From NCBI GenBank assembly GCA_021735655.1, contig JAIPGM010000002.1, forward strand, positions 32,001 through 96,000: a stretch of 64,000 nt of DNA. The letters run 5' to 3'. The position numbers and the translations under genes were made by a program. Positions within the stretch are counted from its first letter, which is position 1; every line of letters starts with the position of its first letter. This DNA is from Candidatus Omnitrophota bacterium. Its GTDB lineage: Bacteria > Omnitrophota > Gorgyraeia > Duberdicusellales > 4484-171. A model generated the notes under the pieces. The model worked only from the letters and a program-made list of their open reading frames with translations. It made no database searches and was not told the origin of the DNA. Below, one piece after another: positions 23,402 through 44,111 of this stretch.

Positions 23402-24334
23402 ATGAACGATCCAAAAGATTTAATTATTGTGGGAGCCGGTATAGCCGGAGTAAGTGCAGCTATTTATGCTAAACGGTCTGGGCTCGATTTTTTAATTTTC
23501 GAGCCTCAAGCTGTTGGCGGACAACTTTTGCTTATGCAGGATATCGATAACTATGTCGGTATTGGCTTAGGTTTGAAAGGTGTCCAGATGGCTCAGACTT
23601 TAGTTAAGACTTTGGATGATTTAGAGATCGAGGTCATCAATGAACGAATAAGTAAAGCTGAATTCGAAAAGGATCAGGTTATTTTTCAATCAGAAGATGC
23701 TACTTATATTGCAAAAACAGCTATTATTGCAACTGGGGCTAGTTTTAAAAAATTAGGTTTGGCCAAAGAGGCTAAATTTACTGGCAAAGGTATATCTTAT
23801 TGTGCGGTTTGTGATGGTTTCTTTTTTAAGGGAAAAGACGTAGCCGTGGTCGGCGGTGGTAATACAGCAGTTGAAGAGGCTTTGTATCTTTCGGACATTG
23901 CCAATAAAGTTACCCTTATTCATCGTCGCGATAAGTTAAGATCACTTGATTATTTACAGAAGCAGCTTTTGGCTAAAGATAATGTAGAGATTGCTTACAA
24001 TAGTGTAGTGGTTGAGCCCAAGGGTAAGGAGCTATTAGAGGAAATCATTATTGAAGATAACCTAACTAAAGATAAGCGTACCATAGCTTTACAGGGGTTA
24101 TTTGTTGCAATCGGCATTAATCCAGCAACTGAAATTTTTAAAGAGTTGGTAGCAAGAGACGATAAAGGTTTTATAATCACCGATCAGGAAATGAAGAGTT
24201 CTTGCGATTTAGTTTGGGCTTGTGGCGATTGCCGCAAGCGTCCCCTAAAGCAGCTGATAACGGCAGCCTCAGAAGGTGCTACAGCTGCCCTCAGCGCCTA
24301 TAAGCACATTAAAGGTCATTATATAAGTTCCTAA
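23402..24334 (+). CDS. trxB: thioredoxin-disulfide reductase
   Basis: FAD GxGxxG, redox-active CAVCDG, and an NADPH-binding GGGNTA motif. Confidence 0.9.
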   Translation: MNDPKDLIIVGAGIAGVSAAIYAKRSGLDFLIFEPQAVGGQLLLMQDIDNYVGIGLGLKGVQMAQTLVKTLDDLEIEVINERISKAEFEKDQVIFQSEDATYIAKTAIIATGASFKKLGLAKEAKFTGKGISYCAVCDGFFFKGKDVAVVGGGNTAVEEALYLSDIANKVTLIHRRDKLRSLDYLQKQLLAKDNVEIAYNSVVVEPKGKELLEEIIIEDNLTKDKRTIALQGLFVAIGINPATEIFKELVARDDKGFIITDQEMKSSCDLVWACGDCRKRPLKQLITAASEGATAALSAYKHIKGHYISS

Positions 24335-25305
24335 TGTCTAAGAAGAAGAATTTCTTTCTAATTTTTAAAGTTGTTGTAACTATAGCAATTCTCTTTGCTC
24401 TTTTTAAGCTAGTACCCTATCAGAAAATAATCGAAGTTTTCAAAGATTCAAATAAAATATATCTTTTTTATGCTGCACTTATTTTCTTTAGTTGTTATTT
24501 TATTGCTGCCTGTCGTTGGCGCTTTCTTCTTTCTTCTCTAGGCGTTGACATGTCTTTTAAAGAAGTTTTCTATGCTTTTTTCTCAGGTCTGTTTTTTAAT
24601 TTATTTTTTCCGTCTTTTGTTGCCGGTGATGTATTTAGAAGCATGAGTATTTCCTATCGCCACGGCTCAGCAAAAAAAGTTGCCTCGTCGGTGCTGATGG
24701 ATAGATTCAGTGGTGCGATAGCTTTGGTTTCAGTTTCGGCGATAGCCTATTTTTTCGGCAGAGATATTTTGAATGACCCTCAGATAATTGTAGCCATAGC
24801 TATTCTTTGTTTGATAATTGTGTTTTCGTCTTTAGTAATATTTAATCGGAAAGTCTTTTTATTTTTAACTAAGATTTTTAGAAAAAATGATGCGATTGAA
24901 GAGAAAATTATTTCTTTTCATGATCAGCTTTATTTTTTCAAAAATAACCCCAAGGTGCTTTTAAAAAGTTTGTATTTTTCGGTGCCGATGCAGATGCTAA
25001 CTGCCATCAGTTTTTTTATTGCTTCTCGAGCATTTGGAGTAGAGGTGAGTATTGTTAATTTTTTAATTTTAGTTCCGATAATTATGGCAATAGCGATGAT
25101 TCCAATTACGATTGCCGGAGCCGGCACCCGAGAGGCCTCAGCAGTTTACTTTTTTTCTCTAATCGGAATAGAAAAAAGCATTGGATTGGGAATATCTTTA
25201 CTTAACCTCATTCTTATGATAGTTGTTGGAATCTTAGGGGGTATTTTTTATGTTAGTGTATATCATCGATGGCTACAATCTCACTCACCGAGTAAAAAGT
25301 CTTAA
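24334..25305 (+). CDS. flippase-like/UPF0104 (lysylphosphatidylglycerol-synthase TM-region-like) membrane protein
   Basis: 323 aa polytopic membrane protein. The conserved CRWRFLL...FFSGLFFNLFFPSFVAGDVFRS region is typical of the TIGR00374/UPF0104 family. Confidence 0.6.
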   Translation: MSKKKNFFLIFKVVVTIAILFALFKLVPYQKIIEVFKDSNKIYLFYAALIFFSCYFIAACRWRFLLSSLGVDMSFKEVFYAFFSGLFFNLFFPSFVAGDVFRSMSISYRHGSAKKVASSVLMDRFSGAIALVSVSAIAYFFGRDILNDPQIIVAIAILCLIIVFSSLVIFNRKVFLFLTKIFRKNDAIEEKIISFHDQLYFFKNNPKVLLKSLYFSVPMQMLTAISFFIASRAFGVEVSIVNFLILVPIIMAIAMIPITIAGAGTREASAVYFFSLIGIEKSIGLGISLLNLILMIVVGILGGIFYVSVYHRWLQSHSPSKKS

Positions 25306-25753: not shown

Positions 25754-27061
25754 TTGATGGATAAAAGAGCTCAAATAAAAAGTTTAGGTTTATTATCATT
25801 TTTTTTGTTTTTAAGTTTTAATTTATGCGCTCAAGATTTCCTTGATGAGCCGATATTTTCTCCGGTTGCCGATAAGGTCTCCCAATACCCCGCTTCTTCA
25901 ATTCTTTATAAACAGTACTTAGAAAATGGTAATCATTATCTAGATCAAGGTCTCTATCGTGAAGCAAAAGAACTATTCTGGAAGGCGATACATCTGTATC
26001 CTCAAAATCCCGATGCTTATATAAATTTAGGAACTGCTCATATGCGTCAAGAGGATCTCGACAGCGCTTTGAGAATTTTAAAAGATGCAGAAGGGCTTGT
26101 TAGTCAGGATTATCAGCAGATCGAAATTCTTTTTTATAATTTAGGAAAGTGTAATTTTTTAAAAGAGGATTACCATCAGGCAATCTTTTACCTTGAGAAA
26201 GCTTTGGCTGAGTTTTCTGACTTTGCCCAAGCTAGATATTATTTAGGAGTTAGCTATTATCGATTGGGCCAGAATGAAAAGGCTTTCGTGAATATATTTA
26301 TGGCTGCTGAGATGTTTGATAAAAATGGTGATCAGGCTACGAGCTTAGAGGTAAGACAATTTTTAAGAAATATTCAGGGTACTCAAAATATTGATCGAGT
26401 TTCTTTAGCCAAGAGTCTTTTTGGTGATGCTCAGGTAGCTTTAGCTAATCAAGAACTAAGTCGGGCCATTGTTTTAATGAAGGAGAGTATATTTTTAAAT
26501 CCCAATGATGCTAATGTCTACTATGAGCTGGCACTTATTTACTCGCGAGAAAATGCCTTCCATAATGCAATTATTTATTTGAATAAGGCAATTGAAGTTG
26601 ATCCTGGTTTTACTAAGGCTTACTTGGGCCTTAATCAAGCTTATCGCAAGGTAGAAAAATATGATTCAGCAGTTGAAATTCTCAAAGCAGCCGCAGACCT
26701 TGATAAGGAAAATCCTTTAATTTATTATAATATGGCTCTTGCTTCCATTGAGGGTCATGACTTTAATACCGCAAGAAGATATCTAACTGAAGCGGAATTG
26801 GGCGCTTTAGCTAACAAAGATGATCTTTTGCTTGAGAAGATAAACGTTGCCTATGGTTTGATTGAGCAATATAAGCAGGCAAAAACTAAGCCACCCTTCT
26901 TTCCTAAGAAAATCACGCGTAAACCGAGCGAGACTCTTTATCCTTATCATTCGCTACCAGGCAATTCTGGTAACTTTAGTGGTGGCTATTTTGTTGTCCA
27001 GCGTTCTACTGAGGATGAGCAAAAGAAGTCAAAAAGTCATCGGACAACCCTTGAATATTAA
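25754..27061 (+). CDS. secreted TPR-repeat protein
   Basis: Signal peptide followed by multiple 34-aa TPR-like repeats (..AYINLGTAH.., ..AYLGLNQAY..). Confidence 0.6.
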   Translation: MMDKRAQIKSLGLLSFFLFLSFNLCAQDFLDEPIFSPVADKVSQYPASSILYKQYLENGNHYLDQGLYREAKELFWKAIHLYPQNPDAYINLGTAHMRQEDLDSALRILKDAEGLVSQDYQQIEILFYNLGKCNFLKEDYHQAIFYLEKALAEFSDFAQARYYLGVSYYRLGQNEKAFVNIFMAAEMFDKNGDQATSLEVRQFLRNIQGTQNIDRVSLAKSLFGDAQVALANQELSRAIVLMKESIFLNPNDANVYYELALIYSRENAFHNAIIYLNKAIEVDPGFTKAYLGLNQAYRKVEKYDSAVEILKAAADLDKENPLIYYNMALASIEGHDFNTARRYLTEAELGALANKDDLLLEKINVAYGLIEQYKQAKTKPPFFPKKITRKPSETLYPYHSLPGNSGNFSGGYFVVQRSTEDEQKKSKSHRTTLEY

Positions 27062-27092
27062 AATCTCGCCAGTTTCTTATTAAAATATTGAG

Positions 27093-27120
27093 TTGACAGA
27101 TATGATTTTGTAGATAGAAT
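27093..27120 (+). promoter_or_regulatory. candidate promoter TTGACA-N16-TAGAAT for tRNA-Glu
   Basis: -35 at 27093-27098 and -10 at 27115-27120, read directly. It is 15 nt upstream of the tRNA 5' end. Confidence 0.45.
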
Positions 27121-27135
27121 TATTATAATTTATTT

Positions 27136-27210
27136 GGCCCCATCGTCTAGTCCGGCCTAGGACACATGGTTCTCAGCCATGAGACACCGGTTCGAATCCG
27201 GTTGGGGCTA
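27136..27210 (+). tRNA. tRNA-Glu (anticodon CUC), no encoded CCA
   Basis: Folded by hand: acceptor GGCCCCA/TGGGGCT (G1-U72 wobble), D-arm GTCT..AGGAC as in tRNA-Glu, anticodon stem CATGG/CCATG with loop TTCTCAG giving anticodon CTC, T-arm ACCGG-TTCGAAT-CCGGT. Confidence 0.85.
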
Positions 27211-27262
27211 CTGTTTTTATTTCTCCCTATTGAATCCCCCCCTGTAGTGGTATAATTTAACT

Positions 27263-27925
27263 ATGAGAAAAGGATTTACCCTAATCGAACTAATAGTGGT
27301 CATTGCAATTATTGCAATTTTAGCTGCCATTATTGCTCCTAATGCTTTTAAAGCTATTGAGAAGGCAAAGATTGCAAAAACTATAGCCGAATTAAGGGTT
27401 TTCAAAACTGCTGCACATTCTTTGTATTCTGATACTGGTCGATGGCCAGGCTCTGGCGGAATTGGACCTATTGCTCAGTGGGTTTATCTTGATAATGGAT
27501 TAATTTGGCCGAGAACCCCTGCTGGTTTAAATAGCAGCTTGTTTGATAATGATGATGGAGTAGGAAATACAATTTCTGGTTGGGACGGACCGTATCTTGA
27601 TCGCCGATCATCTAAATCCGCTTGGGGTGGAACTTATGCTATGTATAAACGTTACAATGGTTTTCCTCAAACTGGATCTAGTGCCGGCGATCTTACTCTT
27701 GTTATTACTAGCATTTGTTATGGGTCACTTAATTCAGTGCTATCTAACAGGAATTGCCCTTTGAGTGAAGAATTAGCGGAGATAATTAATGGTAAAATTG
27801 AAGGCGACAATGATTTACGTTTTGACCAATCAACCGCCGGAAATTTTAGAAAGTTCCTTTGGGCTAACTCGGGTGATACTTGGGAAGGTTTTTATCATTT
27901 CATGATTGGAGAAGACGTTTTATAG
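27263..27925 (+). CDS. GspG-like pseudopilin / type IV pilin paralog 1
   Basis: Class III signal MRKG|FTLIELIVVIAIIAILAAIIAPNAF with Glu5, and GspG-like ..AIEKAK..L..Y..D.GRWP.. plus the WDGPYL motif. A TGGTATAAT -10 ends 7 nt before the ATG with no SD, suggesting a leaderless mRNA. Confidence 0.8.
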   Translation: MRKGFTLIELIVVIAIIAILAAIIAPNAFKAIEKAKIAKTIAELRVFKTAAHSLYSDTGRWPGSGGIGPIAQWVYLDNGLIWPRTPAGLNSSLFDNDDGVGNTISGWDGPYLDRRSSKSAWGGTYAMYKRYNGFPQTGSSAGDLTLVITSICYGSLNSVLSNRNCPLSEELAEIINGKIEGDNDLRFDQSTAGNFRKFLWANSGDTWEGFYHFMIGEDVL

Positions 27926-27938
27926 GGGGAGGCATCCC

Positions 27939-28496
27939 ATGAAAAAATCATTCACTCTAATCGAACTTATAGTAGTCATCGCTATTATAGCTATCCTTGC
28001 CGCAATTATTGCCCCGAATGCTTTTCGGGCTATTGAGAAGGCGAAGGTGGCTCAGGTGGTATCAGATTTAAAGACATTTAAAACAGCTGCTGTAGGTTAT
28101 TATGGGGATACTGGGCAGTGGCCACCAGATGGGGTTAGTTGGTTTACTGATGAAGAGCTGCAGTTTTTCATTACTGGAGTAGGGCAACCAGCAGGCTGGG
28201 ATGGACCCTATTTAGAAAGTTGGCCAAATCCACCTTGGCATTGTGAATTTGTCTATGGTGCTGATACGGTTCATGAAAATTATGATTGGGACCACTGGGT
28301 GGGGTGGTCTTATTGGGGTGTAGTGCCTGCGAATACTGATACTTGCGGTGCAAGTATTTCATGCGTTCCTCAAAAGTCAGCGACAAAGATAGATGTTAGT
28401 TTAGATGACGGTAACCCTTCTTCGGGCAGGGTTCGTTGGGTCAGCTCATATGCCGGTGGTTTCATGAATGCAATTATCATCGAAGGAGGACAGTAA
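27939..28496 (+). CDS. GspG-like pseudopilin paralog 2
   Basis: True start MKKSFTLIEL at 27939 with a GGGGGAGG RBS. The track ORF begins earlier at 27906. Conserved prepilin N-terminus and GWDGPYLE motif, with a divergent Trp-rich C-terminus. Confidence 0.8.
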   Translation: MKKSFTLIELIVVIAIIAILAAIIAPNAFRAIEKAKVAQVVSDLKTFKTAAVGYYGDTGQWPPDGVSWFTDEELQFFITGVGQPAGWDGPYLESWPNPPWHCEFVYGADTVHENYDWDHWVGWSYWGVVPANTDTCGASISCVPQKSATKIDVSLDDGNPSSGRVRWVSSYAGGFMNAIIIEGGQ

Positions 28497-28531
28497 AGGC
28501 CTGATTTGCATTGATAAGAGAAATAACTACT

Positions 28532-29134
28532 ATGAAAAAATCATTTACTCTCATTGAACTAATTGTAGTCATAGCTATCATTGCTATCCTTGCTGCAATC
28601 ATTGCTCCCAATGCCTTTCGTGCCATTGAGAAAGCTAAAATTACAAAAACCATTGCTGATCTAAAAGCCATAAAAACTGCCATTGGGGCTATGTATGCTG
28701 ATACTGGAAAATTTCCCAGCGGCTGTATTGCCTTTACCGTCAATGACCCTGAAGTTAATTTAGATACGGCACAGGCAGGGTTGGTATCCGAACCTCCGGT
28801 TGGAATTTTTACTGGCGCTACCGGCGGCACTTGTGAGTGGACCCAAGCTAATGTCAATTCTTGGGATGGTCCTTACCTTGAAAGCGGGCAAGTAAAGGAT
28901 GTTTGGCATTCAGCATATCATTATGACCCTGATTATTATTATTGCATAAATGGATATTTAAGCCCAGCTGGAGACGGGCCAATAACTAATTGCGGTGACG
29001 CTCCGGTAGCTCAAACTTGTCTAGAGGTATGCGGCGGCGCCTTTAACTGTGGCTTTCCAGTAATACAATCATTTGGCCCTGACAAAAGCGGTTATGGTTG
29101 TGATGATATTATAGTAAAAATGACACTCAATTAG
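28532..29134 (+). CDS. GspG-like pseudopilin paralog 3 (Cys-rich C-terminus)
   Basis: Start MKKSFTLIEL at 28532. WDGPYLE and the C-terminal SFGPDKSGYGCDDIIVK motif are shared with the 43503 paralog. Confidence 0.8.
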   Translation: MKKSFTLIELIVVIAIIAILAAIIAPNAFRAIEKAKITKTIADLKAIKTAIGAMYADTGKFPSGCIAFTVNDPEVNLDTAQAGLVSEPPVGIFTGATGGTCEWTQANVNSWDGPYLESGQVKDVWHSAYHYDPDYYYCINGYLSPAGDGPITNCGDAPVAQTCLEVCGGAFNCGFPVIQSFGPDKSGYGCDDIIVKMTLN

Positions 29135-29282
29135 TGAAAAATAAATAGATAATTAACCACTTTTCCAATCCCAATCAACCCAAAACCGACTATTTCCTTT
29201 CCGTTTGACCACTTTTTACCAAGATGGTTGACAGTTTGGTTGACATCTTACGCTTAACTACTTGAGCCATAATAGTTTTAAT

Positions 29283-29463
29283 AGGACGCATGGTTCTTAG
29301 TCATGAGACACCGGTTCGAACTCGCAATTATTTAGGTTTTTACCTCTCGAGTCCATGAGTACGCCGAAGGCGTACGAATGAATCCTTCCGCCTGCGGACT
29401 AAAGTCCTCGGCGGAATCCCGCCGAATCCGCCAAAGGCAGATGCAGGCGGGAGGTTGGGGCTA
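29283..29463 (+). pseudogene. tRNA remnant (3' two-thirds of the tRNA-Glu-like gene, anticodon loop now TTCTTAG) interrupted by a ~128-nt GC-rich structured insertion
   Basis: 29283-29320 AGGACgCATGGTTCTtAGtCATGAGACACCGGTTCGAA aligns with 27159-27196 of the tRNA-Glu. The tRNA 3' end GGTTGGGGCTA plus similar T-rich downstream sequence reappears at 29453-29477. No matching 5' acceptor strand is present. The intervening 29325-29452 folds into at least three GC hairpins (GTACGCC-GAA-GGCGTAC, TTCCGCC..GGACTAAAGTCC..GGCGGAA, CCCGCC..GGCGGG). Confidence 0.55.
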
Positions 29464-29619
29464 TTTGTTTTCATTTTTTCTTCAGAATTTTAGTAAATCC
29501 CATACGAATTAGTTTTCTATCTTTAAGGATGAGGCCAGGCTATATTTTGAGGTGGCATAAGAGTCAGCTGATGATATAATATGCTTAGTTCTAGAAGCAG
29601 TACATAAAGGGAGTAAAAG

Positions 29620-30543
29620 ATGAAAAAAGTAATCGTTGCGACAACAATACAAAACCCTACAGAAGCTATTGAAAAATTTGATAGTTTGAAGGAATGGACG
29701 CTTATTGTAGTAGGAGACTTAAAAACTCCAGAAAGTTATAAATTAGAAAATGGTATGTATTTCTCTCCCCAGGAGCAAGAAAAATATGATCAAGAGCTTT
29801 CTGATTTAATTGGCTGGAATACCCACGCGAGGAGAAATTTCGGCCATCTATTAGCAAAAGACATGGGTGCGGATGTTATTGCATGTGTGGATGATGACAA
29901 TATTCCGTATAATACATGGGGAAAAGACATTTTTATAGGAAAAGTTGTAGAGGCTAATTACTATGAATCTGACCTCGAGGCTTTTGACCCTGTAGGCGCT
30001 ACTAATCACCCTTACTTATGGCATAGAGGTTTTCCTATTCAGCTAATAAATAAAAGGGATTATAGTAAAAAAATAAAAAAGAAAATAAAAGTAGATATCC
30101 AAGCAGATTTTTGGAACGGTGATCCGGATATAGATGCTATATGCCGAATGATTTATAAATCGGAGGTTAGCTTCGAAGAACAGTATTTTCCTATAGCGTC
30201 TAACAAGCCGTCTCCTTTTAATTCGCAAAATACATTTATTGCGAAAGATGTCCTTCCATATTGTTTTTTTCTTCCACATATTACGCCACTTGGAAGACAG
30301 AGTGATATAGGGATCTCTTATCACTTAGCATCGCTGGGATATAATGTTATATATTGCAAGCCGTCTGTTTATCAGGCTAGAAACACACACAACTTAACTA
30401 TAGATATGGAGGATGAGTTTAAGGGATATATGAGCAATATAGATATCGTAAGAGCTATAGGCAATGGAACGTATAAGAAAGAAGACTTCTGGCCTGAACA
30501 GACATGCGCAGCATATGAGGTTTATCAGAGGAGATTTAAGTGA
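29620..30543 (+). CDS. GT75-like protein (reversibly glycosylated polypeptide / UDP-arabinopyranose mutase family homolog)
   Basis: By-eye alignment with plant RGP1. IVATTIQNP...LIVVGD resembles IVIPTIRN...IIVQDGD. DVIACVDDDNIP resembles YIFTIDDDCF. HRGFPIQL...DFWNGDPDIDA resembles RGYPFSLREGV...GLWLNIPDYDA. RQSDIGISYHLASLGYNV...NTHN resembles RYDDMWAGW..HLGLGVK...SNP. A TATAAT -10 and AAGGGAG RBS lie upstream. The gene is A+T-rich. Confidence 0.45.
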   Translation: MKKVIVATTIQNPTEAIEKFDSLKEWTLIVVGDLKTPESYKLENGMYFSPQEQEKYDQELSDLIGWNTHARRNFGHLLAKDMGADVIACVDDDNIPYNTWGKDIFIGKVVEANYYESDLEAFDPVGATNHPYLWHRGFPIQLINKRDYSKKIKKKIKVDIQADFWNGDPDIDAICRMIYKSEVSFEEQYFPIASNKPSPFNSQNTFIAKDVLPYCFFLPHITPLGRQSDIGISYHLASLGYNVIYCKPSVYQARNTHNLTIDMEDEFKGYMSNIDIVRAIGNGTYKKEDFWPEQTCAAYEVYQRRFK

Positions 30544-31460
30544 AGAATAGCAACGATACAAAAATCAATAATTCACTTTCCGGCATACTTTGTTGTATAA
30601 ATTTCAACGAAGTGCACTACGACAATATAGAATTTTTAAAAGATTTGTATAGCAATTTTGTTGATGTAGTTTTTTACGGGCCAGAGCGGAAGCAGGGGTT
30701 CGAAGTAAATCAATTATGCCACCATCGTGGCTATTTTAGTTATGCAGTGATATTAGACGCAATTAAAAAATTTCCAGATTACAATGGATATATATTTGTT
30801 AATGATGATTGTATCATGAATATATGGCAATTCATAAATAAAGACAAGACTAAAGTATGGTTGCAGCCGTTTCATTCTAAAGTTAATCGCCATGATTATA
30901 AAGAAAGCACATGGTTTTGGCTGAATGAGCCATGCGGTATCTCTGCTTATGGTAAAGCTTTCTTGCAAATCCCGCGTAGATACCGTGAAAGGCTTAAATC
31001 GTCATTTGGGTCTGAAGATGCTGTGATTTGTGGACCTGCTGATTGTTTTTATTTGCCCAAAAGACGGATAAATGATTTTGCTTCCTTGTTTGATATATAT
31101 TTTTCCAACAGGGTGTTTACTGAAATAGCGGTGCCTACTGGCCTATACGCAATCGAAGATAAGGCACAAATTACAGTTTTCAAGGGTCATGACAGAGTGA
31201 CATTTCCTTTGTCATTTATTCCTTATGACCTAAAAGCAAAAATATTCTACAGAGGAGAGTTGGACTTATACCATCCTTTAAAATTGTCTAATTCTAAAAT
31301 GAGATCTATGGTTAAAAATATGTTTAATGTATATCTTTTTCAAAGAAATAAATTTTTTTCAAAAATTTTAAGATTATGCGATTTGCTACGTCCTTTTATT
31401 TGGTTTTGGGCATATATGTATATGATTCAGGGGAGATTTTTGAGAAAGATTCGTTATTGA
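30540..31460 (+). CDS. putative GT-A-fold nucleotide-sugar transferase (hydrophobic-DDx motif YIFVNDDC), unknown family
   Basis: 306 aa. Its start overlaps the stop of the GT75-like gene, indicating an operon. The DxD-like motif is preceded by a beta-strand-like hydrophobic run. No confident family assignment. Confidence 0.3.
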   Translation: MKNSNDTKINNSLSGILCCINFNEVHYDNIEFLKDLYSNFVDVVFYGPERKQGFEVNQLCHHRGYFSYAVILDAIKKFPDYNGYIFVNDDCIMNIWQFINKDKTKVWLQPFHSKVNRHDYKESTWFWLNEPCGISAYGKAFLQIPRRYRERLKSSFGSEDAVICGPADCFYLPKRRINDFASLFDIYFSNRVFTEIAVPTGLYAIEDKAQITVFKGHDRVTFPLSFIPYDLKAKIFYRGELDLYHPLKLSNSKMRSMVKNMFNVYLFQRNKFFSKILRLCDLLRPFIWFWAYMYMIQGRFLRKIRY

Positions 31461-31537
31461 AAAGTTATATGAGAAAGTAGAAGCAAACTGTTAACTTATA
31501 GTTTCGTGATATAATTTTAAGCAGAGGAGGTACCCTA

Positions 31538-31657
31538 TGAAAAAATCATTCACCCTCATCGAACCAATAGTAGTCATTGCTATTATTGCAGCAATCATCG
31601 CCCCTAATGCGTTTAAAGCTATTGAAAAAGCAGAGGAAGTAAAATGTCCACTTGGTG
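31538..31657 (+). pseudogene. truncated pseudopilin gene fragment (39 codons)
   Basis: MKKSFTLIEPIVVIAIIA-AIIAPNAFKAIEKAEEV... is the conserved prepilin N-terminus with a 3-codon in-frame deletion and L->P change, then an early stop. It retains a GATATAAT -10 and GGAGG RBS. Confidence 0.6.
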
Positions 31658-31846
31658 GCAAGATAAGAATCTAGGAGGTAGGTGGTATTGGAAATTAATA
31701 TTAATGGTGCTATTTGTTGGTATTGCTGTACGAATCATTATTAGCATATCAATAAGATAACAGGTGATTTAATTTTATAGTATTTTTTTATTATGAAGTT
31801 GTTGATAACGGCTGGTCTATTTTTAATCGGATTCACAACTAGTCAT

Positions 31847-31875
31847 AAAAAATCCCGCCCTTTTACAGGCGGGAT
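31847..31875 (-). terminator. rho-independent terminator for the minus-strand PilZ gene
   Basis: 8-bp stem ATCCCGCC/GGCGGGAT (31852-31859 / 31868-31875) with an 8-nt loop. On the minus strand it is followed by U5 (complement of AAAAA 31847-31851), 27 nt beyond the PilZ stop. Confidence 0.6.
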
Positions 31876-31901: not shown

Positions 31902-32258
31902 TTATTCTTTCAAAAGATAAAATCGGATATGATCCAGAATCTGTTTTTTTGAATCCTGGCTGATCTTTCGAAATTTCATGCCTATCAAATAAGGATAGTT
32001 GCGATCGTTAGTCTCGTTTCTCCTTACTACCTCGGCAGTAGCGATGATAGGTTCTTTTTTCTCAGGAACATATATGCTTAGGTCCATTCTCTCACCTATG
32101 TCTAACTTATAAGGGGTCATTAAGCATATCCCGTCTTCGGAAATATCCTCACTCAAGGCATTGTGCTCAAATAGGTATTTAACCGGACAGCGAAATACGT
32201 TTAATTTTGCTTTAAGTCTGAAGTGTTTTCTTTCATTAACTCTCATGGTTGCCTCCAT
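31902..32258 (-). CDS. PilZ-domain c-di-GMP binding protein
   Basis: RxxxR (RKHFR) and DxSxxG (DISEDG) PilZ motifs with correct spacing. GGAGG RBS. 118 aa single-domain protein. Confidence 0.75.
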   Translation of the reverse strand: MEATMRVNERKHFRLKAKLNVFRCPVKYLFEHNALSEDISEDGICLMTPYKLDIGERMDLSIYVPEKKEPIIATAEVVRRNETNDRNYPYLIGMKFRKISQDSKKQILDHIRFYLLKE

Positions 32259-32425: not shown

Positions 32426-32758
32426 TTACCAGCGGTTTAATACCTTTTGCTGGTCTTGAAACTTTTTATTGAGGGATTCTGCGGTATTTTCACTACGTTT
32501 GAGTAATGTCTGATATTCTGAGGAACCGATGTTCTCAGCTGAAGGGTTGGCTTCGTCATTTTTGTTAAAAAAATCTTTCCTGAGATAGAGCTTATTCATG
32601 ATAAGGAGGATGAGAGCGGAGATAATCGTGAAAGTTACAACAATGCTGATTAGGCTAGCAAAACCTTTTTTACCATACATAAGGATAAATTTTGGCTGCA
32701 GCAGGAGGCACTCCACCAACCACGGGAGAGGTAGTAAGCCTTTACCTGCCACAACCAC
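32426..32758 (-). CDS. small membrane protein (possible true start at Met27, 32680)
   Basis: Hydrophobic segment KKGFASLISIVVTFTIISALILLIM is loosely prepilin-like but lacks Glu5. No family recognised. Confidence 0.35.
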   Translation of the reverse strand: MVVAGKGLLPLPWLVECLLLQPKFILMYGKKGFASLISIVVTFTIISALILLIMNKLYLRKDFFNKNDEANPSAENIGSSEYQTLLKRSENTAESLNKKFQDQQKVLNRW

Positions 32759-43502: not shown

Positions 43503-44111
43503 ATGCGTAAAGGTTTTACTCTAATTGAACTAATTGTAGTCATCGCGATTATCGCTATTTTAGCTGCTATCATCGCCCCTAATGCTTTCAAAGCAATTGA
43601 AAAAGCCAGAAATGCTAAGACAATAGCTGATTTGAAAGCCATAAAGACTGCGATAACCGCTTTGTATGCTGATACAGGGAGGTTCACTCGTGGTTGTGCT
43701 GCTTTTGTAACTACTGAGCTTGAGATGAGGTTAAATGATGAGGGTGTAGGTTTGCTAGATAAGCCTGTAGCGAGAGTGTGGCATGCTGGTGGTTCTGGTG
43801 ATGCGCCTTGCGAATGGACTGCAAGTAATGTGGAGGCTTGGGACGGACCTTATGTTGAGGGTGGTAACCTTATTGATGTTTGGCAAGAGGCTTATATCTA
43901 TGATGGTGATTATACAGTTTGTACGATTAACTGTGCTGGTGGTTGTGTGTTTAATATTTATACTGAGTGTGCTTCAGCTGATCCAGCACGATTGTTATGT
44001 GAAGATGAATGTGGCCCAGCTGGACCCTGTAAGCCCCCAGTTTTGGGTTCGTTTGGTCCAGACGGTGAGTGGTACACTTGTGATGATATAGTAGTGAAGC
44101 TTAGCAACTAA
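43503..44111 (+). CDS. GspG-like pseudopilin paralog 4 (14 Cys in the mature region)
   Basis: MRKG|FTLIELIVVIAIIAILAAIIAPNAF, AWDGPYVE, and the C-terminal SFGPDGEWYTCDDIVVKLSN motif shared with paralog 3. GGGAGGG RBS. Confidence 0.8.
   Translation: MRKGFTLIELIVVIAIIAILAAIIAPNAFKAIEKARNAKTIADLKAIKTAITALYADTGRFTRGCAAFVTTELEMRLNDEGVGLLDKPVARVWHAGGSGDAPCEWTASNVEAWDGPYVEGGNLIDVWQEAYIYDGDYTVCTINCAGGCVFNIYTECASADPARLLCEDECGPAGPCKPPVLGSFGPDGEWYTCDDIVVKLSN

Follow-up and report, generated by a model that had tools for sequence, protein, structure and literature searches.

Among described enzymes, those of the GT75 family come closest to the system considered here. Bacterial MtdL and Hyg20 interconvert the pyranose and furanose forms of guanosine diphosphate (GDP)-activated sugars (GDP-L-Fuc/GDP-L-Gal); MtdL is a structurally characterised nucleoside diphosphate (NDP)-pyranose mutase, for which essential residues are known from mutagenesis and catalytic roles have been proposed for an Arg nucleophile and an Asp base (PMC9937993). 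The family also includes the plant reversibly glycosylated polypeptides/uridine diphosphate (UDP)-arabinopyranose mutases (RGP/UAM; Pfam RGP, PF03214), and GT75 proteins show glycosyltransferase (self-glycosylation) activity as well (PMC9937993). In eukaryotes, a GT75-related region is combined with a membrane anchor and a DUF288 region in a single protein, STELLO (PMC4906169), known as STELLO1/2 in plants and with STELLO-type counterparts in fungi (Pfam PF03385). Furanose sugars are also found on type IV pilins: Pseudomonas aeruginosa group IV pilins carry D-arabinofuranose, as a first-pass annotation of our locus correctly stated, and TfpW is the oligosaccharyltransferase of that system (bioRxiv 10.1101/2020.04.19.049825). 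Here we analyse a 4.4-kb segment (positions 27,062 to 31,460) of a 64,000-nucleotide stretch of a Candidatus Omnitrophota genome (GCA_021735655.1, contig JAIPGM010000002.1, positions 32,001 to 96,000; hereafter the window), in which a tRNA-Glu gene, three pilin-type genes and an operon of two putative carbohydrate-active enzymes follow one another. The first-pass annotation, made from the sequence alone, had read the whole segment as one acquired island for pilin variation and glycosylation. On balance, we favour a reading of the segment as three unrelated things: a tRNA-Glu gene, a pilin block bounded by tRNA sequence, and a module for a furanose-forming mutase and a transferase.

The operon comprises the following features:

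29552–29580, plus strand: promoter-like site with extended −10 (GTGGCA-17-TG-TATAAT), 10/12 matches, 40 nt before the operon; a consensus match alone
29620–30543, plus strand: GT75-like protein of 307 aa (K9L86_01300), candidate NDP-sugar pyranose/furanose mutase by phmmer and Foldseek
30540–31460, plus strand: GT-A-fold glycosyltransferase of 306 aa (K9L86_01305) that resembles the C-terminal half of STELLO and ends in a hydrophobic helix

The two open reading frames (ORFs) are translationally coupled and share a 4-nt overlap (GTGA), with GGAG lying 5' of the GTG start. Their products are identical to two proteins, encoded on a contig of 322,746 bp, of a Candidatus Omnitrophica metagenome-assembled genome (MAG) that NCBI lists under the above locus tags as 'hypothetical protein', and both lack a signal peptide and any N-terminal hydrophobic segment.

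The first protein had been called GT75-type, an assignment borne out by both sequence and fold. In a phmmer search of the PDB it matches the MtdL chains 7yua/7xpr (E 9e-17) over query residues 59–275. An AlphaFold model (predicted local distance difference test 92.8) has MtdL structures as its top six Foldseek matches, with template modelling (TM) scores of 0.71–0.78 and a best E of 8e-20; the seventh is rice UAM2 (8cid; E 3e-10, TM 0.61), and the next GT-A matches are weaker by at least four orders of magnitude. Among 120 homologs, D91-D92-D93, R136, D170, S202-Q203, R226, and D229 are invariant, and R254 and H257 are nearly so. Of the residues that MtdL requires according to mutagenesis (PMC9937993), two positions alone depart from this conservation. 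The window protein thus shares with MtdL the DDD motif, the nucleophile Arg, both Asp residues, the Ser-Gln pair, the second Arg, and the Arg/His of loop A, as well as an apparently cytoplasmic location without a signal peptide. It is about 70 residues shorter (307 vs. 376 aa) and, unlike MtdL, is encoded outside an antibiotic gene cluster. With the plant RGP/UAM enzymes it has in common the fold (rice UAM2) and the logic of catalytic Arg and DxD motif (PMC9937993). Homologs number 4832 at E ≤ 1e-3. Matches in the genomes of 185,579 species are rare (285 stretches), at 52–69% identity and spread over many phyla, and the clade, in which Gln replaces a metal-binding His, extends to phage-like and giant-virus contigs. 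Judged by sequence and modelled fold, the first protein is a family-level member of GT75, in a distinct large clade that carries no function name in the sources checked.

The second protein is predicted to have the Rossmann-like fold of GT-A enzymes, in which an acidic motif for metal binding follows a β-strand, in keeping with its earlier description as GT-A-like; the motif (D89-D90) is invariant in its family, and a hydrophobic helix makes up the last ~35 residues. Its closest structural relatives are GT31-type enzymes, among them the fungal galactofuranosyltransferase GfsA, and its best structural neighbours are the GT31-like domains of two-domain chondroitin synthases. Identity to the GT31-type proteins compared (B3GNT2, B3GalT5, C1GalT1, chondroitin synthase N-domains, and Aspergillus GfsA) is just 7–14%, GT31 families of Pfam do not match it, and membership of GT31 is at most putative. 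By sequence it is STELLO (former DUF288)-like: 33 of 50 relatives match Pfam STELLO at E ≤ 0.01. An exhaustive HMMER search returned 555 cluster representatives of this family, and a word-index protein search gave three close relatives, rising to 13 with a profile, several of them on sparse-gene, eukaryote-like contigs. Profile–profile comparison of the two enzyme families detected no similarity; therefore, they are not close paralogs. Stand-alone relatives of the second protein include one annotated in a Candidatus Babeliales MAG (P0147); relatives at a greater distance come from sparse-gene contigs of eukaryote-like character (L085, L086).

The two genes recur together. The overlap of 4 nt is retained in the two nearest copies of the pair (loci L001 and L003), and a scan of metagenome contigs with a 14-sequence alignment of the second family yielded 30 loci, in 14 of which a GT75-like gene lies within 2 kb; in 12 of these the two genes directly adjoin each other, with gaps of −8 to 143 nt. 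Most of the second-protein loci that lack a GT75-like gene are on contigs too short for a view of the neighbours. The metagenomic pairs include both gene orders and one divergent arrangement, at G+C contents of 33–68%. Gene fusion independently argues for joint action of the two proteins: some relatives of the second are long proteins in which a GT75-like domain precedes the part shared with it, the named ones belonging to Mortierellomycota (in Podila and Actinomortierella: P0262, P0185, P0215, and P0237). One such fused fungal protein is KAF9315390.1. Against a 708-aa protein of Podila horticola, which matches Pfam STELLO at 82 bits, BLASTP aligns the first window protein to residues 72–328 (E 3e-26) and the second to residues 454–688 (E 8e-23). 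On the strength of recurrent adjacency and of these fusion proteins, we take the two genes to be a functional unit. The patchy distribution of the second family and of the fused proteins across domains of life suggests horizontal transfer. In one pair locus (L092 6585–7436) a sulfotransferase-like gene and a gene for a small secreted-looking protein lie between the GT75-like and the second gene, an arrangement that hints at a sulfated glycan product there.

Because both window proteins align to the halves of one STELLO-type protein, the operon has the architecture of a STELLO that is split, anchor-less, and cytoplasmic. The Pfam STELLO profile divides in the same way: the second-protein family matches positions ~190–387, and in a second class of GT75-like partners the C-terminal ends match positions 1 to ~110/115 at 31–85 bits, above the cutoff. 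In the window protein 1 itself, the profile has no match. STELLO is one membrane-anchored polypeptide of the Golgi lumen, whereas the window encodes two separate cytoplasmic polypeptides without an N-terminal anchor. We tentatively propose, as a possibility, that eukaryotic STELLO has its prokaryotic counterpart, in split form, in this pair, and that a furanose-forming mutase and a furanosyltransferase are coupled here. In that case STELLO-type proteins would have two functions, making a furanose and transferring it, also in plants, where they take part in the assembly of cellulose synthase; and the large GT75-like clade would provide a widespread furanose route in microbial envelopes that is independent of flavin adenine dinucleotide. 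In two loci of the second class of pairs (L101 6820–8456 and L106 5875–7645), both proteins begin with a hydrophobic segment (signal peptide or anchor), in neighbourhoods with many secreted-looking proteins that are reminiscent of host-associated bacteria.

Beyond the pair, GT75-like genes have other recurrent neighbours. Counts were made over 83 loci, comprising 80 loci fetched from the genome set (L005–L084), the window, L001, and L003. A GT2 gene, whose nearest relatives are dolichol/polyprenyl-phosphate hexose synthases (DPM1) and ArnC, is immediately 5' of the GT75-like gene in 62 loci, and a nicotinamide adenine dinucleotide-dependent short-chain dehydrogenase/reductase (SDR), resembling GDP-fucose synthase and other nucleotide-sugar enzymes, is immediately 3' of it in 46; both genes are present in 41, GT2 alone in 21, and SDR alone in five. 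This GT2/GT75-like/SDR cassette appears uncharacterised. In other loci, the GT75-like gene is joined through overlapping stop and start codons (4 nt) to a gene of a further putative transferase family. Viral contigs of IMG/VR contain 302 stretches with GT75-like relatives (44–52% identity), giant-virus bins included; among the 80 viral loci kept (L117–L196), an SDR is found somewhere in 62 and directly adjacent in 22, and neither the second protein nor a GT2 of the cassette type adjoins the GT75-like gene. Thus, a single conserved enzyme is combined with varied transferases and a nucleotide-sugar enzyme, as one would expect for a step that modifies the donor. Profiles of the GT2 and SDR neighbours found neither beside the window operon, the sole SDR match in the window being ADP-heptose epimerase, 29 kb away.

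The main rival to the mutase reading is that the pair forms an ordinary heterodimer of two glycosyltransferases, devoid of mutase activity, that adds successive or alternating sugars in the manner of two-domain polymerases. We regard this as unlikely. It would account for the fusion of two GT-A-type domains in STELLO-type proteins and for the chondroitin synthase neighbours of the second protein, and it could draw on the self-glycosylation activity that GT75 proteins also possess (PMC9937993). Loss of the MtdL Mn2+ ligand points the same way: the position of His287 is occupied by Gln252, invariant in the 120 homologs. Against it, the full set of MtdL ring-contraction residues (Arg nucleophile, Asp base, second Asp, Ser-Gln, and second Arg) is invariant, the GT75-like gene mostly stands between a nucleotide-sugar SDR and a polyprenyl-phosphate-type GT2, which suits a donor-modifying enzyme, and it pairs with several unrelated transferase families.

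Under the mutase reading, the first product would most likely be a GT75-family enzyme of the cytoplasm that turns an NDP-pyranose into its furanose form, with Arg136 as nucleophile (by way of a self-glycosylated Arg adduct) and Asp229 as base, as proposed for MtdL. GDP is more likely than UDP as its nucleotide, because Thr (T8 and T68) occupies the two positions that favour GDP in MtdL, which are Thr/Ser there and Pro/Asp in the plant enzymes; this N-terminal mapping to MtdL is inferred from the motif pattern. The base-choice residues would thus resemble those of GDP-using bacterial enzymes more than those of UDP-using plant ones. The second product would be a GT-A transferase of GT31-like type, with a DD motif for metal and, at its C-terminus, a helix that associates with the membrane; it would most likely use the furanose donor of the first, with inversion as in GT31-type enzymes. 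The acceptor would lie at the inner face of the inner membrane and is probably an envelope glycan or lipid, not a pilin.

Several observations weigh against the mutase reading or against its STELLO connection. The replacement of His287 by Gln in this clade is accompanied by that of MtdL Asp87, for which 83 of the 120 homologs have Ile, 36 have His, and one has Val; metal binding or chemistry may therefore be different, with the proviso that Asp87 is missing from plant RGPs too, which have Ser there (PMC9937993). No Pfam family matches the first protein at E ≤ 0.1, and this includes RGP (PF03214), the profile that the earlier annotation had proposed as a check and with which the plant enzymes are recognised; NCBIfam likewise gave none, and among the sequence searches it was that of the PDB alone which made the link to GT75. 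The second protein itself scores 23.3 bits against Pfam STELLO, under the cutoff of 27.8. The GT75-like domain of eukaryotic STELLO faces the Golgi lumen (PMC4906169), where a mutase of the donor pool would have no obvious role. Duplicates are present among the metagenomic loci (L092/L093 and L108/L109, and L087 is the same as L001), so that about a dozen independent instances of the pair are left, plus the window and L003. Finally, the genes of the comparison loci were called by simple ORF rules, and pilins were detected by motif.

The enzyme families were known already and the fold assignments are unsurprising; the pair is an uncharacterised variant of known enzyme families. In the literature, of which our coverage was incomplete, we found no description of the recurrent bacterial pairing, of a split-STELLO equivalence, or of the size and wiring of the Gln-variant GT75-like clade. 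As a small, soluble bacterial pair whose genes are neighbours in about a dozen unrelated loci and fused in fungi, it lends itself to probing STELLO-type chemistry. The large GT75-like clade, with its usual place between a nucleotide-sugar SDR and a polyprenyl-phosphate-type GT2, might commonly supply the furanose donors of bacterial and viral glycans in a metal-dependent way.

To the left of the operon, and just to its right, the segment contains these features:

27093–27120, plus strand: promoter-like site TTGACA-16-TAGAAT, 11/12 consensus matches, ending 15 nt before tRNA-Glu; a consensus match alone
27136–27211, plus strand: intact tRNA-Glu (anticodon CUC), called by ARAGORN and by Rfam RF00005 (56.9 bits, E 1.7e-10)
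27263–27925, plus strand: pilin/pseudopilin paralog 1, 220 aa; Pfam N_methyl 32.2 bits, T2SSG below cutoff, NCBIfam GspG-like N-terminus
27939–28496, plus strand: pilin/pseudopilin paralog 2, 185 aa from ATG; N_methyl, T2SSG 31.4 bits (above cutoff), prepilin motif in the six-frame scan
28532–29134, plus strand: pilin/pseudopilin paralog 3, 200 aa; Pfam N_methyl, T2SSG 27.3 bits
29282–29320, plus strand: decayed partial tRNA-Glu copy (3' side of D-arm to T-loop), direct repeat of 27158–27196
29321–29452, no strand assigned: G+C-rich insert of 132 nt with strong predicted structure, interrupting the partial tRNA-Glu copy in the T-loop
29453–29463, plus strand: copy of the tRNA-Glu acceptor 3' end, GGTTGGGGCTA, whose sole other exact copy is in the intact tRNA (27200–27210)
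31537–31674, plus strand: truncated pilin remnant, 45 aa; weak N_methyl match (19.3 bits)

The description of the three genes as pilin paralogs with near-identical N-termini and divergent C-termini is upheld. N_methyl is above cutoff in all three and T2SSG in two of them, and matches to TIGR01710 (GspG) are under the family cutoff. The first 58 residues are 78–86% identical among pilin 1, pilin 3, and a further paralog at 43503, and the N-terminus of pilin 2, read by eye, is nearly the same. Past a WDGPYL motif the globular domains have little in common, with the exception of pilin 3 and the orphan gene (43503–44111), which lies between ksgA and a gene for a symporter of the sodium:neurotransmitter family; their C-terminal domains are 40% identical, and the N-terminus of the orphan is 83–86% identical to those of pilins 1 and 3. 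The pilin pseudogene reported downstream of the operon is likewise present: over 64 nt, ribosome-binding site included, the 5' region of the truncated copy shares 86% identity with the corresponding part of pilin 2, and the copy has a three-residue deletion and an L-to-P change in its helix. The GGAGG ribosome-binding site is kept in at least pilin 2 and the truncated copy. A system of pilin variation, as the first-pass annotation envisaged, finds no support in these genes: the paralogs are complete, their shared 5' DNA is just 71–86% identical, and silent cassettes are absent. Among the ORFs scanned in 21–61 kb, there is no secretion or pilus ATPase, platform protein, or secretin.

It had further been proposed that a furanose donor produced by the mutase is used by the GT-A enzyme to glycosylate the neighbouring pilins, a proposal that we now regard as very improbable. 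Its attraction lies in the position of the genes, with three pilin genes 5' of the operon and a pilin remnant 3', and in the precedent of D-arabinofuranose on the P. aeruginosa group IV pilins (bioRxiv 10.1101/2020.04.19.049825), which resembles the proposal in that a type IV pilin bears a furanose sugar and the genes of the system stand beside the pilin gene. A lack of co-occurrence between relatives of the enzyme genes and pilin genes had been named as the observation that would speak against such a role, and the neighbourhood survey found the relatives essentially never beside pilins. A six-frame scan for prepilin motifs over 83 other loci with the GT75-like gene, the 80 genome loci, L001, and L003 among them, gave a true pilin N-terminus within 5 kb of the GT75-like gene in only two, both of Planctomycetes, and adjacent in neither; two further GT75-like loci have pilin N-termini at 5–9 kb. 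Among the 30 second-protein loci there is one true pilin motif, 7 kb away, and an adjacent pilin in none. The nearest copies of the pair have neighbours unrelated to pilins, namely radical-SAM and methyltransferase genes (L001) and a GT-B-like gene (L003). Pilin arabinosylation through TfpW depends on a polyprenyl-phosphate D-arabinofuranose donor that is supplied by DprE1/E2-like enzymes, and is not known to involve a GT75 enzyme. TfpW itself is a membrane GT-C oligosaccharyltransferase, whereas in 25–34 kb of the window no GT-C-like membrane protein of the kind expected for a periplasm-facing oligosaccharyltransferase is encoded, nor are DprE1/E2-like proteins present in the region; and the window enzymes have no signal peptide, while the mature domains of pilins are located in the periplasm.

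Adjacency to pilins is weak evidence here because pilin paralogs are scattered among housekeeping genes in this genome, the orphan at 43503 being an example. Counting the other way, pilin genes do flank the module on both sides in this genome, and a local, lineage-specific use of the module on pilins is conceivable.

The tRNA-Glu (CUC) with a promoter of its own, as first annotated, is confirmed by both tRNA searches and by the consensus match of the promoter-like site; as a class, sites of this kind show no regional enrichment (21 observed vs. 18.8 expected). The second, degraded tRNA copy also stands. Positions 29282–29320 equal 27158–27196 at 36 of 39 positions (92% identity), with the anticodon changed from CTC to CTT and the 5' acceptor half missing, and neither ARAGORN nor Rfam calls a tRNA there. 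The second 11-nt match of GGTTGGGGCTA is by itself not rare (two or more matches in 15 of 100 shuffles), and it carries weight because it directly follows the 39-nt repeat on the 3' side, with order and orientation as in the tRNA; a 22-nt pattern of the tRNA 3' end with up to three mismatches has no other match, and chance would give none. The claim that the repeat extends into downstream context does not stand, as the sequence shared 3' of the two copies is just a T-rich stretch. Absent from the earlier description is the 132-nt insert, which takes the place of three T-loop bases of the partial copy. It has a predicted fold of −67.9 kcal/mol (z −5.6 vs. shuffles) with several hairpins, and no Rfam family or second copy in the window was found for it.

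The extent of this repeat bears on whether the segment is a single horizontally acquired tRNA-Glu island over 27.06–31.46 kb that has lost its integrase, which we consider improbable. The layout resembles that of tRNA-linked genomic islands in having an intact tRNA on one side, here the left edge, and on the other a direct repeat of the 3' portion of that tRNA. This repeat extends no further than 29463 and encloses the pilin block alone (~2.1 kb); the enzyme operon lies outside, to its right, and a search for a third tRNA-Glu fragment right of the operon found none. Unlike such islands, the bounded segment is short, holds pilin genes alone, has normal codon usage, and is accompanied by no integrase, as the first-pass annotation had stated: 25–34 kb contains no ORF of integrase size, and integrase families have no Pfam match among all ORFs of at least 110 aa there. 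Composition gives a divided answer. Tetranucleotide distance is raised, with z 3.0 for the pilin genes and z 2.5 for the enzyme genes, and the second enzyme gene has the lowest G+C content of 66 genes (0.334, z −1.8; mean 0.386, standard deviation 0.029), which together with the patchy distribution of the pair would suit acquisition; the operon had been called markedly A+T-rich. The first enzyme gene is close to the mean (0.363, z −0.8), and third-position G+C content (GC3) and codon usage are typical in both (z within 1). The second gene alone is a G+C outlier; composition is mildly atypical, and the earlier wording was too strong.

Loci elsewhere offer some parallels to a tRNA-linked module. 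L003 has an intact tRNA-Met, then a hairpin-rich spacer of 97 nt, then a 17-nt repeat of the tRNA 3' end (AAGTCCACTCGCCGCTA) at 612–801, and its GT75-like gene begins ~190 nt past this arrangement; the tRNA type differs from that in the window. Three short motifs are collinear between L003 and the window insert: TATTTAGGTT; GCGGAATCCCGCC in the window vs. GCGGGATCCCGCC in L003; and TATTTGTTT. These matches, of 9–13 nt in a short-word BLAST, are individually insignificant (each E 0.1–0.5), and a MAFFT alignment of the tRNA-fragment region of the window with L003 was uninformative; at the level of sequence, the likeness of the L003 tRNA layout to the window insert is at most suggestive. In L006 the GT75-like gene follows a tRNA-Ser. 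While these cases favour a single island, no tRNA is present in the 29 metagenomic module loci scanned (L093, the duplicate of L092, being left out), and no tRNA adjoins the GT75-like gene in the other genome loci. In a search for relatives with an empty site, the exact tRNA-Glu pattern matched no other metagenome contig. The separate-parts reading fits the extent of the window repeat, in that the pilin block, between the intact tRNA-Glu and its decayed copy, would have the layout left by site-specific integration or local duplication at the tRNA gene, and the operon would be an older neighbour.

The GT75-like cassette of other genomes sometimes also holds a 640-aa TPR membrane protein or a membrane protein of the LPG_synthase_TM (flippase-like) type, and the latter Pfam family is a neighbour of the cassette in eight other genomes. 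A member is encoded in the window at 24334–25305, 1.8 kb 5' of tRNA-Glu; a profile built from the eight cassette-linked copies did not match it. A TPR gene at 25754–27061 is the left-hand neighbour of tRNA-Glu. Directly right of the pilin remnant, a gene for a PilZ-domain protein (cyclic di-GMP receptor family) occupies 31902–32258 on the minus strand, with a terminator-like hairpin at 31854–31869. An ORF of 110 aa follows at 32426–32758, also on the minus strand, with one hydrophobic segment, a codon usage residual of z 6.9, and GC3 of z 2.8; its Pfam matches are all sub-threshold, and it may be foreign or not a real gene. Nearly all of the window genes are on the plus strand and have housekeeping functions (SecDF, Mfd, SurA, PdxA, KsgA, HisF, TrpE, GlgC, MurI, HldD, and RNase PH), and an rRNA operon starts near 62 kb.

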